A DNA stretch of 30,244 nucleotides, from contig CAMTVK010000004.1 in the NCBI GenBank assembly GCA_947085185.1, positions 1-30,244 on the forward strand, written 5' to 3'. Both the position numbers and the translations under genes were made by a program. How positions within the stretch are numbered: position 1 is the stretch's first letter; every line of letters starts with the position of its first letter. Origin of the DNA: Candidatus Fraserbacteria bacterium. GTDB lineage: Bacteria > Bipolaricaulota > Bipolaricaulia > RBG-16-55-9 > DRXL01. Shown here piece by piece: positions 1 through 4,760 of this stretch. Under the pieces are notes generated by a model that had not been told where the DNA came from, did not search any database, and saw only the letters and a program-made list of their open reading frames with translations.

Positions 1-227
1 CCCTCAGCCCTCAGTGCTGCCCGCAAGCCGCCTGCCCATATGATGAGCACGCGCATCAATATCCAAATAAAGACAACAAACACAGCAGCCCAGACCATGG
101 TTAGCATACCGAGTCGCCCAGCGCTCATCTCCAGTCCAGCAAAAGTGACGACCAAGAGTAGAGTCATAAGCGTCAGCGCTACTCCAAAGGCAGCGAAAAA
201 TCCCCATGCTGTCACTGGTGTAAACAT
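1..227 (-). CDS. Partial membrane protein running off the left edge (MFTPVTAWGFFAAFGVALTLMTLLLVVTFAG...)
   Basis: Hand translation: ATG at 227 preceded by GAGGTG, no stop to position 1, two long hydrophobic stretches. Absent from the ORF track because it is open-ended. Confidence 0.65.
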   Translation of the reverse strand, partial: MFTPVTAWGFFAAFGVALTLMTLLLVVTFAGLEMSAGRLGMLTMVWAAVFVVFIWILMRVLIIWAGGLRAALRAE

Positions 228-263
228 AAACTTCACCTCGTTCCTCAGCGTTTAACTTGGCTG

Positions 264-515
264 TCACGGGGTGAAAGCAGCCACACAGCCCATGATTGCT
301 CCTGCTCCTGTTGGTAGTTGGGTATCGAGTTCTTTGGATACCCTGGTCTCATCAGTTACAGGGAGAGAGCCTGCTATATCAAAACTTGACTGTTTGCCGC
401 AACGAGGACAAAGGCCGCTTGGCCGGTGCGAGTCCGGCAAGCCTTCATTTTCGGGCGGCAATACTTCGTCTCGTCGTCCTTTGCGCTTTGGTTCGCTTTT
501 TTCGAACATAAACAT
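264..515 (-). CDS. 83-aa cassette ORF with a single CxxC (LCPRCGKQSSF); possibly a truncated or fused gene
   Basis: ATG 515 follows the core site at 585-591, with AAGGG upstream. Only one zinc-ribbon knuckle is present. Confidence 0.45.
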   Translation of the reverse strand: MFMFEKSEPKRKGRRDEVLPPENEGLPDSHRPSGLCPRCGKQSSFDIAGSLPVTDETRVSKELDTQLPTGAGAIMGCVAAFTP

Positions 516-584
516 GCTGTTACCCTTTGGTTCGGTGTATGTGCCTTTGATAGCTTTATGCACAACTGTCGGCATAGAGGAAGC

Positions 585-650
585 ACCCAACGGCCCGCGC
601 TTCAGCCGCCGCGAGCGAGCGTAGCGGTCGGCTGCAAGCGCTTGTTAGCC
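585..650 (-). other. attC: attC site (66 bp)
   Basis: Minus strand: GGCTAAC-AAGCG-CTTGCAGC...GCTGAAG-CGCGGGCC-GTTGGGT. L'' equals the reverse complement of L' plus one extra base. Confidence 0.93.
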
Positions 651-719
651 AGCCATTCCCCGTTACGGGACACACCGTTTTCTGGACTATCTCGCACTTC
701 AACCCTTCGGTGCGTTCGA

Positions 720-1280
720 TTACCAGAACTTCGGCTTAATAACCATCAAGCCCAGCGAAATGAGCGGTAAAACCGTAGCCACGATTCCCCAAAAATACCA
801 CCTGTGAAGCACCTGAAAATATTCCTTGGGAAGAGTCTCTCCTGCTTGAGCATTCGCAGACAGCCGAATGAGTCTATTTTGGTCTGGAATTAAAAACCCA
901 GCCCACACAACACCTGACAAGGTGAACAGCACCAGAGCAACAGTAATCCAACTCACACCAAGTATTCCGCCCCACGTTGTGGCAAGAATCAGTCCATTCG
1001 CCAGCAACAGTAATACCCCTGGCGCGGTGAACAGCACATCCGCCCAGTTCACTACCTTTGAAGCAAATCGCAGTATTGCTACTTCTTGTGCGCGTTCTGC
1101 TAGAAACATCCATACGCCCGTTACGATGATGTTTCCCAGAAAGATCACCGCTCCGAAAATGTGCAGCACCTTGTGCACGGCGTAAGGGAAAAGGGGCGCG
1201 TAATTGGTAATTCCCAACAAGGTAAGGACGAATACAGTGATCGCAATTTCGCCGATCAACCACTTGGTGCTTGTATGCAT
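720..1280 (-). CDS. DUF2269-like integral membrane protein, 186 aa (cassette)
   Basis: ATG 1280 with AAGGAG. Motifs HKVLHIFGAVIFLGN, DVLFTAPG, LIPDQ, WYFWG and terminal LMVIKP; about five hydrophobic segments. Confidence 0.8.
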   Translation of the reverse strand: MHTSTKWLIGEIAITVFVLTLLGITNYAPLFPYAVHKVLHIFGAVIFLGNIIVTGVWMFLAERAQEVAILRFASKVVNWADVLFTAPGVLLLLANGLILATTWGGILGVSWITVALVLFTLSGVVWAGFLIPDQNRLIRLSANAQAGETLPKEYFQVLHRWYFWGIVATVLPLISLGLMVIKPKFW

Positions 1281-1349
1281 ATCAACTCCTTTACAATGCT
1301 CGTTTTCTCGCGCAGCATGAGTGCAAGACTGCTCTGTATGGGCTGGCCT

Positions 1350-1409
1350 GGCTAACACTCGGCATCAGCGGCGGCGCGCAGCGCCGTCCGCTGTATGCTG
1401 TTGTTAGAC
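1350..1409 (-). other. attC: attC site (60 bp)
   Basis: Minus strand: GTCTAAC-AACAG-CATACAGC...GCTGATG-CCGAGT-GTTAGCC. Confidence 0.93.
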
Positions 1410-1412
1410 GTC

Positions 1413-1913
1413 TTACTTCAGCCGCTTGTCAAGAACATCCCATTTGTCCCTGTGCTCCCTCAACATCTCTGGGCGAATCGCCATGTGGAAGGAATCGTGC
1501 TTTCTCGGTCGAACACCGCCGTGGCTCTCAAGATACCGGCGATAGCCGGCTATGGCGATCTTCTGGAGGTCACTCCAGGTCAGGATGTAGAACTCGTCGG
1601 CTCCTTGTTCGCGCAGTCGCACAAGCACGCAGACCAGATCAGGATACGGGGCCTCGGTCGGCCGAACGATGACCTGTTTCTTGCCCGCGAGCCGGATTTC
1701 CATGAAGGCACGGGAATCAAACTGCCATGCCCCTCCCTTTATGGCCTTTACCTGAATCGCCTGGTGCCTACCGCTCCCATTTGAGGCAATAATGTCGTAG
1801 TGCGGCACGTTTCCTGTGAATGTGGTGGCAATGAACCCGCGCCTACAGACCTCAGCTGCTACAAGATACTCGCCGACCTGCTTAGTGAGCTGATTGTCAC
1901 GGCCTGTCGCCAT
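1413..1913 (-). CDS. Small PD-(D/E)xK-superfamily nuclease, 166 aa (cassette)
   Basis: GEYLVAAE...PHYDIIA...IQVK pattern of restriction/Hjc-like nucleases; fills the cassette between two attC sites. Confidence 0.78.
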   Translation of the reverse strand: MATGRDNQLTKQVGEYLVAAEVCRRGFIATTFTGNVPHYDIIASNGSGRHQAIQVKAIKGGAWQFDSRAFMEIRLAGKKQVIVRPTEAPYPDLVCVLVRLREQGADEFYILTWSDLQKIAIAGYRRYLESHGGVRPRKHDSFHMAIRPEMLREHRDKWDVLDKRLK

Positions 1914-1927
1914 GCTTCACCCTACAC

Positions 1928-1989
1928 GTCTAACGGCCCGCGCTTCACCTGCGCCGCGCAGCGGCGTCAGGTGCAAGCGCGTGTTGGGC
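1928..1989 (-). other. attC: attC site (62 bp)
   Basis: Minus strand: GCCCAAC-ACGCG-CTTGCACC...GGTGAAG-CGCGGGCC-GTTAGAC. Confidence 0.93.
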
Positions 1990-2019
1990 GCAACGTGCTT
2001 TAAACAGAAGAGGCACACC

Positions 2020-2241
2020 TTACAGTAGTTCCCACAACTCGTCACGTGTCATCTCACAATCGTGTAGAATCTTGGACATCAAACCTGGTCCAATTGTTTC
2101 TCCGCGATGCACTGGTACAACTGTACACCGTCCATCGGAATGACGCAGAAAGTGATGACTTCCTTTTACGCGTATCACTTCAAAGCCAGCCCTACGCAAC
2201 GCCGCAACAAGTTCTTGACCTTTGACGCGCGGCACTTTCAT
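2020..2241 (-). CDS. hicA: HicA/YcfA-family toxin (mRNA interferase), 73 aa
   Basis: GFEVIRVKGSHH...VVPVH...IGPGLMSKIL motif; ATGA overlap with the upstream hicB. Confidence 0.9.
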   Translation of the reverse strand: MKVPRVKGQELVAALRRAGFEVIRVKGSHHFLRHSDGRCTVVPVHRGETIGPGLMSKILHDCEMTRDELWELL

Positions 2242-2453
2242 GCTTCAACCCAGATGCGCTGAACCCCTATGAATTCCTGAGGCGAGACTTCCTTACCTTC
2301 GACTTCTAGGCACAACTCGATTGCCTCGCGAACTCGCTTCATCAGGGTATCCAGAGATTTGGCTTGAGTGTGGCAACCGCGCAATTCAGGAACGCTGGCT
2401 ACATAGTAACCTTCTGAGTCGCGTTCAATGATAACGCTAAATGCTCTTGGCAT
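2238..2453 (-). CDS. hicB: Short HicB-family antitoxin with no C-terminal DNA-binding domain, 71 aa
   Basis: YVASVPELRGCHTQAKSLDTLMKRVREAIEL motif. Confidence 0.9.
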   Translation of the reverse strand: MPRAFSVIIERDSEGYYVASVPELRGCHTQAKSLDTLMKRVREAIELCLEVEGKEVSPQEFIGVQRIWVEA

Positions 2454-2501
2454 TGGTCTTCACCCCATTCTGTTGTTTTGCATCTTGCTTCGAAGGCTTG
2501 C

Positions 2502-2523
2502 GCCTAACGGCTCGCGCTTCACC
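2502..2523 (-). other. Half attC (L' and R' only)
   Basis: Minus strand: GGTGAAG-CGCGAGCC-GTTAGGC, joined directly to the promoter module; no R''/L'' arm. Confidence 0.8.
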
Positions 2524-2601
2524 CTTTCTCTTCCGGCAACGCACGCACAATCCCGCCGCCATCACCTTTATACCACAACGGCAGGCAAATCACAACTGCC
2601 C
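2520..2601 (-). promoter_or_regulatory. Repeated cassette promoter module, copy A
   Basis: TTGTGA (2595-2590), 17 bp, TGg-TATAAA (2572-2567). Near-identical to 3688-3773. Confidence 0.7.
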
Positions 2602-2682
2602 ACACGCCCGCCGGGCTACACCCCTTCTCGGGCCACCGACTCGGCAGGCACCACCCCGAATTCCCTTTTTCACTCCATCTGC

Positions 2683-2804
2683 GCCCAATGGTAGCGTCAG
2701 CGGCGCGGCGTGACTGTCCGACAAGCCGGCAGGCGAAGCAACTTTGCCTTTCGCGGCCACGGTTGGGCGCGGCCCAGCCGCGTCCGCTGAACGCGGGGTT
2801 GGGC
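2683..2804 (-). other. attC: Long, degenerate attC (122 bp)
   Basis: Minus strand: GCCCAAC-CCCG-CGTTCAGC-GGACGCGGC...GCCGCGCC-GCTGACG-CTACC-ATTGGGC. The core GTT reads ATT and the R''-L'' spacer is only 4 bp. Confidence 0.75.
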
Positions 2805-2815
2805 AGCTCTTCACT

Positions 2816-3571
2816 TCACTTTATCATGGGCCGTAAGATGGCCACATACCACATCGCTCGCTCTAAGGGTGCTGATTCGACATACTGCCCGCTTTCATAG
2901 TCCATCATCCCACCCGCTTTCACGCTCACCAGCTTCAGACCCGTGCCTTCCAGAAGTAACCGCAAATCGGCGGGAGAATAGCAGCGCAAAGATTGTTCAA
3001 TGCTCTCCCCAGTCTCTTCCACCCACCAGCGGTCAATCCACCGGCACCCTTCACCATCAAAGTCGTATACTCGCTGCGCTTTTCCCACACGTCCACCATG
3101 CCCGATGGATTTCGCCGCATGCCAAGGCGTATACACATCAATCAACGCTATGCCTTTGGGACGCAACCAAGTGCAAATGCGCTTCAGCAAAACCCGCTGT
3201 TCTTCGTCTGTCCCGATGCCAAACCCATCCCAATAACACACGGCATCAAAAGAGGCTGCAGGCAATTCCACCCGATAGAAATCGTCTTCCACAACTTCTA
3301 CTTGCGCTTTAGGATGCTGCCGGCGCAACTTGTGAATGTGCTGCACCAAAGCGGGTACCTGTTCAACTGCCACAACTTCATACCTTTGTTCCGCCAGCGC
3401 AATGGCATCCTGCCCCCCGCCCGCGCCTAACTCCAGAATGCGTTGTGGCGGCGGCCCAAGAACGGTTTGCACCCATTTCGCTTTGCGGCGATGCCACTCT
3501 TCCACACCGCCCCAATAAGCGCCACTCCATTCGGCCTGCTTGGTATAAAAATCGCGCGTCCACGATAACAT
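2816..3571 (-). CDS. Class I SAM-dependent methyltransferase, 251 aa (cassette)
   Basis: ILELGAGGG motif I, DDF, FDAV and LRPKG motifs; ATG 3571 lies just downstream of the attC core site. Confidence 0.88.
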   Translation of the reverse strand: MLSWTRDFYTKQAEWSGAYWGGVEEWHRRKAKWVQTVLGPPPQRILELGAGGGQDAIALAEQRYEVVAVEQVPALVQHIHKLRRQHPKAQVEVVEDDFYRVELPAASFDAVCYWDGFGIGTDEEQRVLLKRICTWLRPKGIALIDVYTPWHAAKSIGHGGRVGKAQRVYDFDGEGCRWIDRWWVEETGESIEQSLRCYSPADLRLLLEGTGLKLVSVKAGGMMDYESGQYVESAPLERAMWYVAILRPMIK

Positions 3572-3582
3572 GACAGTGTGGT

Positions 3583-3649
3583 GCCCAAGGGCTCGCGCTT
3601 CAGCCGCCGCGAGCAAGCGCAGCGGTCGGCCTGTAAACGCGGGTTGGGC
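3583..3649 (-). other. attC: Degenerate attC (67 bp), close relative of attC 585-650
   Basis: Minus strand: GCCCAAC-CCGCG-TTTACAGG-CCGACCGCTGCGCTTGCTCGCGGCG-GCTGAAG-CGCGAGCC-CTTGGGC. The core GTT reads CTT. Confidence 0.82.
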
Positions 3650-3687
3650 GCAGCCCACTTGCTGGAGCAAGTCCCCATCACCACAAA

Positions 3688-3773
3688 CACCCTTTCTCTT
3701 CCGGCAATGCACGCACAATCCCGCAACGCACCATCCCCTTTATACCACAACGGCAGGCCGGTGACAACTGCCC
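3688..3773 (-). promoter_or_regulatory. Repeated cassette promoter module, copy B (Pc-like position at the head of the array)
   Basis: TTGTCA (3767-3762), 17 bp, TGg-TATAAA (3744-3739). Confidence 0.72.
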
Positions 3774-3878
3774 TTCCAGCTCCGTGCCCTGCCGTCCCCT
3801 TCAGTATCAATGTACTCCACCGTGAGCCGCCCGTCGCCTAAGACCGTTGCTTTCATTGACCGATTTTGAAGCCAAACA

Positions 3879-3909
3879 GCGGCATCTCGCCGCCACGCAC
3901 GGATGCCGC
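3879..3909 (-). terminator. Possible hairpin/terminator downstream of proC
   Basis: 8-bp inverted repeat GCGGCATC...GATGCCGC followed by TGTTT on the minus strand; long loop and weak U tract. Confidence 0.3.
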
Positions 3910-3944
3910 CCATACTCACTCGGCTGTGTTGCGTCATCAGAGAC

Positions 3945-4760
3945 TCACTGCGACAGCTCTTTGGATTTCTCCGTGGCGCGATCTACCGTTTTGATGAGCG
4001 TGACGCGAATCCCCCCGTCCTCTAACGCCATGATCCCGTCTATCGTCACCCCCGCAGGAGTCGTCACCTCGTCCTTGAGCTTGGCCGGATGCTCCCCCGT
4101 CTCTAAGACCATCTTCGCCGCCCCTAAGAGCGATTGCGCCGCAAGCATCGTCGAGAGCGAGCGGGGCAAGCCGACTTTCACCCCGCCCTCGGCCAACGCT
4201 TCAATCATAATGTACGCATACGCCGGGCCGCTTCCCGACAGCGCCGTCACCGCGTCCATCAAGTCCTCGTTGTCAATGACCGCAACAAGCCCCACCGCCC
4301 CGAAGATCTCCCGCGCCACTTCTATGTGCTCTTTGGCCGCATAGCGCCCTGGACAGAGCACGGTCATCCCCGCGTTCACCAGACATGGGGTGTTGGGCAT
4401 GGCCCGCACCACGGGGATGTTTTTCTGCAGATGCTCTTCGATGAAGCGCGTGGTGCGCGCCGCCGCGAGCGTGATGAGAAGTTGATCGGCACGCACAGCG
4501 TCTCTGATCTCAAGCAAGACTTTCTTCATAGTTTGGGGCTTGACCGCAAGAACGATGATCTGAGCATCAGCAACAGCCCGAACGTTGTCGGTGAGAGCCT
4601 GCACACCATAGCGTTTGGCCGCCTCGAGAGCGCTCTCACGATGGCCGGTCGTGCCGATGAGACTCTTGCGAGGGACGATCTTGTTGCGCACGAGGCTGCT
4701 GGCCAGCGCCCCACCGATCTTGCCCATCCCGATGATTGCTACTTTCTTGCCCTTCAGCAT
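3945..4760 (-). CDS. proC: Pyrroline-5-carboxylate reductase
   Basis: IIGMGKIG Rossmann motif, LAVKPQ, RAMPNTP, TALSGSGPAY, VTTPAGVT. Start moved to ATG 4760, downstream of the predicted promoter. Confidence 0.95.
   Translation of the reverse strand: MLKGKKVAIIGMGKIGGALASSLVRNKIVPRKSLIGTTGHRESALEAAKRYGVQALTDNVRAVADAQIIVLAVKPQTMKKVLLEIRDAVRADQLLITLAAARTTRFIEEHLQKNIPVVRAMPNTPCLVNAGMTVLCPGRYAAKEHIEVAREIFGAVGLVAVIDNEDLMDAVTALSGSGPAYAYIMIEALAEGGVKVGLPRSLSTMLAAQSLLGAAKMVLETGEHPAKLKDEVTTPAGVTIDGIMALEDGGIRVTLIKTVDRATEKSKELSQ

Follow-up and report, generated by a model that had tools for sequence, protein, structure and literature searches.

Our comparative analysis suggests that two short modules in the window (the whole 30,244-nucleotide stretch of DNA analysed) are likely to be deleted copies of a gene-less integron cassette family that also occurs in Chloroflexota arrays. 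At the core of both copies is a predicted housekeeping-sigma promoter, which would transcribe whichever cassette lies behind it. The modules belong to a cassette array that occupies bases 1-3945 of contig C4 of the window's genome (G000; 1.72 Mb, 96.8% complete), on the minus strand behind proC. From its head, the array comprises patchwork DNA, copy B of the module, attC6, a SAM methyltransferase gene, attC5, copy A and a half attC4, followed by hicB-hicA, attC3, a 166-aa protein of unknown family, attC2, DUF2269, attC1 and the contig end. The array runs off the contig start, and only its near end is visible. Its features, from the chromosomal flank inward, are as follows.

3945-4760, minus strand: proC (Pfam P5CR_dimer), the chromosomal flank, pointing into the array
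3879-3896, minus strand: weak terminator-like hairpin between proC and the array, a pattern match only (5 found against 7.9 expected in shuffles)
3802-3847, minus strand: 46 bp matching exactly the 3' end of a chromosomal gene (G000:C21:82467-82512); belongs to the patchwork that took the place of the 5' half of copy B
3688-3773, minus strand: module B, promoter core and first part of the leader (-35 at 3767-3762, TG at 3747-3746, -10 at 3744-3739, predicted +1 at 3732; family HMM E 3e-13)
3650-3687, minus strand: 3' portion of the family cassette's leader, present in B but deleted from A (45-47 nt align with the G194 homolog at 83% identity)
3583-3649, minus strand: attC6, a degenerate site belonging to the family cassette itself (R' CTTGGGC; L'' altered)
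2805-3582, minus strand: SAM-dependent methyltransferase cassette (ORF 2816-3571), the first gene behind B, with closest relatives in Chloroflexota
2683-2804, minus strand: attC5, 122 bp (R' ATTGGGC where relatives in L058, X6 and X11 have GTT)
2602-2688, minus strand: copy A's 5' portion of the family cassette, from which about 110-115 nt have been deleted at a 6-7-nt direct repeat (2608-2614), near -50
2520-2601, minus strand: module A, promoter core and 40 nt of leader (-35 at 2595-2590, TG at 2575-2574, -10 at 2572-2567, predicted +1 at 2560; family HMM E 5e-11)
2502-2524, minus strand: half attC4 consisting of L'-spacer-R' alone; a GGGTG microhomology marks its junction with the leader, and it fuses A to the hicBA cassette
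2020-2453, minus strand: hicB (2238-2453)-hicA (2020-2241) toxin-antitoxin cassette, 107 nt behind A's predicted start
1928-1989, minus strand: attC3, intact (z -5.7)
1350-1409, minus strand: attC2, intact (z -5.5), behind a 166-aa ORF of no known family (1413-1913)
585-650, minus strand: attC1, behind the DUF2269 cassette

No intI was found at the array head, and no match in the genome passes the TIGR02249 cut-off for an integron integrase (tblastn with a relative's IntI gave a best E of 6e-5). The array therefore fits the CALIN category, described by Cury et al. (2016, PMC4889954) as at least two attC sites without a nearby intI, with its far end lying beyond the contig start. Two adjacent tyrosine recombinase frames on contig C30 (L001, L003) lie beside IS-like remnants and are not integron integrases. 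Among relatives, the same-genus genome G012 carries an intI with an internal stop (L036:1501-2442) and a second, internally deleted intI (L043), with cassettes at each, and in G020 (L033:400-900) only the 5' and 3' ends of intI are left, ahead of attI and an intact array. The sequence behind proC varies across the 10 relatives' loci shown. The head junction of the array is also present in run X3 of another study (3731-4041) and is therefore no assembly artefact. Within that head, the 46-bp piece has no obvious homology at its junctions, and its source is presumably an alkaline phosphatase D gene.

Other parts of the array also have close copies in the genome. A 198-bp, 99.5% identical copy of 2699-2896, which contains the 3' end of the methyltransferase gene and attC5 minus its last bases, lies at G000:C2:167960-168157 between a palindromic repeat with several genomic copies and the consensus promoter of a transporter-like gene. 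Positions 1-290, the last segment of the array, are 99% identical to G000:C3:1-290, there within a non-integron locus. Together with the C21 piece, these copies make it seem that short exact pieces of DNA move in and out of the array. The part of the array spanning the methyltransferase and attC5 likely came from Chloroflexota, since both have their closest relatives there. A terminator-like hairpin (3566-3551) sits at the start of the methyltransferase gene. A stop-free open frame (2816-3718, minus strand) runs from B's leader through attC6 into this gene; it has no Pfam match and is probably a chance product of two 1-nt indels.

A preliminary description of this DNA had reported the module as a duplicated promoter cassette, and its observations are confirmed in part. 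The two copies are 87% identical over 86 columns with one 4-nt indel (E ~1e-24), and no third copy is found in the 1.72-Mb genome. In both, the minus strand carries TTGT(G/C)A and TATAAA 17 bp apart and TG at -15/-14. The end strings TTGGGCGCAG and CTGCGCCCAAC are present at the start of the segment holding A and the end of that holding B, and neither segment has a convincing ORF. The claim that each copy sits just upstream of an attC needs qualifying: B lies 38 nt before attC6, which is degenerate (its L'' has two substitutions and one extra base relative to attC1), and A has only the half attC4, R'' being absent from its segment. The shared CGCGAGCC spacer is there, but it is an ordinary attC spacer that also occurs in relatives' attC sites, and the pairing of the segment ends, though real, has a similar extended counterpart in the hicBA cassette. 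For these reasons, the spacer and end-pairing arguments alone prove little. That A and B are nevertheless one cassette type, as had been proposed, is established by full-length homologs.

These homologs come partly from metagenomes. We compared 11 contigs from four studies across 2508-2700, on the basis of coordinates and 30-letter loose ends, leaving X1 and X4 uncounted because they may stem from the source study itself. Record 6 of X6 and record 9 of X9, hot-spring contigs from two studies, contain B-like 3' sequence, the module, a middle part of 104-110 letters missing from A, and A's 5' part. A's 5' part directly follows an attC in X6 (records 6 and 8) and X11 (record 1); record 11 of X9 has an A-like 5' part without the expected preceding attC. 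The parent cassette reconstructed in this way is ORF-less and about 340 bp long, and the alignments indicate that A and B are complementary relics of it. Copy A keeps the 5' end and has lost about 110 nt upstream of -53 as well as the stretch from +41 to L' of its attC, both deletions lying at short direct repeats. Copy B has lost everything upstream of -41, which is the edge of the conserved core, and retains the 3' half. In run X6, hicBA comes after an ordinary attC stem (loose end at 2515). In the window, the segments are not flanked by intact attC sites on both sides, and B lacks its 5' end. Integron recombination is placed between G and TT of GTT in the account of PMC8876359. With no IntI detected in the genome, only half of attC4 left, and the G of GTT missing from both attC5 and attC6, copies A and B are probably immobile relics. 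The earlier idea of a mobile promoter cassette thus applies to the family and not to the window copies, given their deletions and the crippled attC sites beside them.

The family itself was traced to another phylum. Neither BLAST nor pattern searches found the module in the 183 other genomes of the window's phylum, and none was found in 60 relatives. A match appeared in 1 of 401 genomes of the Chloroflexota, the phylum of G184. The two phyla are distinct, since that of the window has 184 genomes in all and the Chloroflexota sample was drawn from more than 400. With the Chloroflexota homolog as query, matches were found in five of 151 relatives, itself included. A pattern restricted to the promoter core gave nine matches in seven of the 291 genomes of the homolog's class and none in a reversed-pattern control; attC sequence lies about 100 nt behind five of the eight new matches. 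One candidate, L088 (G1144), was removed from the family as an ordinary chromosomal promoter (3 mismatches, HMM E 0.003), leaving 13 loci in 10 Chloroflexota genomes. An HMM built from 11 Chloroflexota members matches exactly A and B in G000.

The preliminary description had asked whether homologs precede attC sites, and most do: the family is found almost only in cassette arrays, and in 11 of the 13 loci the -10 box is followed by attC sequence at a distance of about 93-104 nt. Eight of these sites are whole (two with a degenerate box, in G990 and G273) and three are reduced to the R''-L'' half. No attC lies behind the core in L085 or in the fragment L090. Full-length bodies span 297-668 bp with complementary ends and, in the five measured, have a GC content of 57-67%. 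Both cassette bounds, a GTTRRRY R' and a downstream attC, are present in G194, G414, G1023, G1046b, G1261 and record 6 of X6. The genes downstream differ at every locus examined (alpha/beta hydrolase, WXG100, SnoaL, DUF433, a Cys/Met PLP enzyme and unknowns), and the family can therefore be regarded as mobile. Two copies per genome occur in G000, G1046 and G1319. The family cassette of G194 (L077:1808, minus strand) is the first in a short array; it occupies a GTT site that no attC precedes, lies within an open frame on the opposite strand, and possibly arose by secondary-site insertion. A GTCTTGC-containing motif of the cassette leader recurs in the long attC loops of L079, L077 and L078, with mixed z-scores for the similarity.

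Searches further afield gave little. None of 401 genomes of the Armatimonadetes, the phylum of G185, matched, using a query that also missed G414 and G273 among the 401 Chloroflexota genomes, which makes this a weak negative. An exact 18-mer scan of metagenome contigs gave 15 matches, none homologous beyond the word itself, and most family members differ from that word at -13; an exact 22-mer had no match in GTDB genomes. Three scans of viral contigs returned one chance match, none and none, and plasmids and phages gave only short weak matches or none.

Conservation within the family is concentrated in the promoter core. Across 14 copies, which are related and not independent, so that the counts describe a pattern and not probabilities, the peak of conservation is TTG-N3/17 bp/TGnTATAA. 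All 14 have TTG at -35, the 17-bp spacer, G-14, A-11 and T-10. Among the 11 Chloroflexota copies, mean pairwise identity is 0.82 in -40 to -7 and 0.40-0.56 in four flanking blocks. A pyrimidine-purine start at a 6-nt discriminator is present in 12 of the 14 copies, matching the predicted starts at 2560 and 3732, and the same 6-nt spacing peaks among 150 promoter-like sites of G000 chosen irrespective of position -7 (68 sites against 26-35 at other spacings). On the minus strand of 1-3945, no sites look more sigma70-like than those of the two copies, which score 11 and 10 of 13 positions (next 9), and the hicBA cassette has no stronger such site before hicB. A standard scanner missed both sites because it demands T at the last -10 position. 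The core thus has a predicted sigma70-type -35, 17-bp spacer, extended -10 and initiator aimed at the downstream cassette, and by its conservation appears to be a promoter-like element under selection. The fit is uneven: in Chloroflexota copies the -35 box is poor beyond TTG and three of 11 cores score no better than shuffles, G1319b has a degenerate -10, and conservation of the spacer goes beyond what a plain promoter would require.

T occupies -7 in one of the 14 family copies and in 124 of the 150 host promoter-like sites. In the account of PMC7703639, 90-99% of non-alphaproteobacterial promoters carry -7T, and promoters lacking it are weak unless a factor such as CarD assists. We rejected dependence on CarD, as CarD_C (PF21095) was found neither in G000 nor in the five Chloroflexota hosts searched (0 of 6), with matches in 5 of 14 controls. 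Upstream of and within the core, TTGCY boxes occur at -93, -77 and -28, and neither window copy retains the boxes at -93 and -77. The output of the window promoters may consequently be weak, given the missing -7T, the lack of a detected CarD and the loss of the upstream boxes. The earlier suggestion that the modules power the array is weakened by the first and last of these.

These same features raise the alternative that the promoter is conditional, with a factor bound to the TTGCY boxes being required to rescue a promoter that lacks -7T; the window copies would then have almost no activity, and any transcription of the array would come by read-through from proC. The fixed positions of the boxes and the rarity of -7T fit this idea. 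So do the orientation of proC into the array with only the weak hairpin between, and the likeness of the -80 to -31 block to the -30 to +18 block, which resembles an old 49-bp duplication and whose score was reached by none of 200 shuffles. The repeated boxes may, however, be a mere relic of that duplication, and no regulator gene was seen recurring beside the loci. Moreover, the break in B falls exactly at the core edge, A keeps the core despite two deletions, and the window -35 boxes are near consensus (5 and 4 of 6). We therefore regard a conditional promoter as unlikely.

A role for the cassette as a small-RNA gene, in which a leader-plus-attC RNA of 100-200 nt acts in trans and downstream expression is incidental, seems to us slightly less probable still. 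The nearly constant distance of about 93-104 nt from the -10 box to R'' and a few invariant leader bases speak for it, and ORF-less cassettes encoding regulatory RNAs are known from Xanthomonas according to PMC8876359. Three consensus folds yielded no compensatory pair on either strand (7-12 sequences, giving limited power), and no Rfam family reached threshold. Leader identity is just 0.47-0.55, no terminator-like site was called in the leader of B or A, and half of the leader is gone from A, all of which argue against such an RNA. A coding function is also not apparent: no frame is open in all nine full-length members, the substitutions follow no codon phase, indel length is divisible by three in 15 of 67 cases, and the chance ORFs tested have no Pfam match. 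A leader peptide reading through attC was rejected, as ATG follows the -10 box in five of the 14 copies but precedes the predicted start, and the frames are not kept. Sigma54, ECF, LexA and DnaA-box readings, compared by eye, did not fit.

The remaining alternatives concern origin. The module might be the remnant of a MITE, an IS1111-attC element or a group IIC-attC intron that inserted into an attC and brought an outward promoter, in line with A's junction inside an attC and the outward promoters ascribed to IIC-attC introns in PMC8876359. This is highly improbable given the full-length members: intact members have whole attC sites on both sides and no terminal inverted repeats besides R'/R'', no intron or IS family matched, G000 holds only two copies, and microhomology deletion explains A's junction. 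Least probable of all is that the module derives by duplication from the attI/Pc region of an integron platform since lost, for although B stands at the array head and the G1115 core abuts a broken intI, the module does not lie beside an intI 5' end without its own attC, no match was found to the intI/attI regions of the window's relatives, and G414, G1023, G1046a/b, G1261 and G1319b have attC on both sides with complementary R'/R'' ends. An origin of the cassette from attC loop debris, for which z-scores are mixed, is only suggestive.

We therefore favor the reading of A and B as deleted copies of a gene-less promoter cassette. Under this reading, housekeeping RNA polymerase would start at 3732 and 2560. 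From B, transcription would cross attC6 into the methyltransferase gene, and from A it would enter hicB-hicA and the cassettes beyond. Without -7T, the promoters would be moderate or weak. With no IntI and crippled attC sites, the arrangement of the array is likely frozen, and the promoters would thus now serve as fixed stand-ins for Pc. Truncations that spare the core recur in the window (A and B), in G1115 (joined to a broken intI), in G1225 (core 64 nt before the Cys/Met enzyme gene) and in G1319b. Those in the three Chloroflexota genomes suggest, but do not prove, repeated domestication, as ordinary decay would look alike; partial attC loss may likewise be ordinary decay of integrase-less arrays. 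It is possible to speculate further, and only tentatively, that integrons of Chloroflexota and their hot-spring neighbors share an ancient, phylum-crossing plug-in promoter cassette, which is kept below full strength by avoidance of -7T and gated by a factor on TTGCC boxes. Such a cassette would have been domesticated repeatedly by attC deletions that weld it to the next gene (toxin-antitoxin here, the Cys/Met enzyme elsewhere), keeping integrase-less arrays expressed.

Gene-less promoter cassettes are already known from Treponema and Vibrio; what appears new from these comparisons is a cross-phylum family with one conserved predicted promoter in which -7T is consistently avoided. We found no description of this family in the literature, though cassette lists in subscription journals and supplements beyond our reach could hold members. 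The gene-less promoter cassettes of Vibrionaceae superintegrons, as presented by Blanco et al. (2024, PMC11014356), are likewise ORF-less, attC-bearing and a few hundred bp long, with sense-strand promoter potential for downstream cassettes. Their activity was measured, however, with starts that were often scattered and possibly reflect AT-rich spurious transcription, and that account reports that in-silico prediction did not track measured promoter activity. In contrast, the present family has a predicted promoter only, a GC-rich body, one architecture at a fixed distance from attC, and a conservation peak across two phyla. The ORF-less promoter cassettes of oral Treponema (Tansirichaiya et al. 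2019, PMC6557892) are similar in carrying sigma70-type promoters, one of them in first position (a 'genetic clutch'), but several are described there as bidirectional or antisense, in integrons with Pc, whereas the data here point to just one promoter, on the sense strand, of an array that lacks both intI and Pc. Paralogous non-coding cassettes of Vibrio (Boucher et al. 2006, PMC1382264) also occur in multiple copies in one array under apparent purifying selection, with promoter or RNA roles proposed; in that account they are conserved over their whole length and have no homologs outside vibrios, while the present family crosses phyla, ranges in length from about 300 to 670 bp and has most of its conservation at the promoter core. 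Loss of attC is described as fusing neighboring cassettes (PMC8876359), and compared with CALINs and fused cassettes as treated there and in PMC4889954, the fusion partner here is a gene-less promoter cassette, a candidate for expression of an array that lacks Pc. Two questions are open in the literature: what drives expression of arrays lacking intI and Pc, and whether gene-less cassettes evolved as promoters or are mere AT-rich noise. In this GC-rich family, comparisons single out one exact predicted promoter and one start base. As natural variants are at hand (L083 with -7T, L091 with a broken -10, and core-only as well as full-length forms), both questions can be tested.
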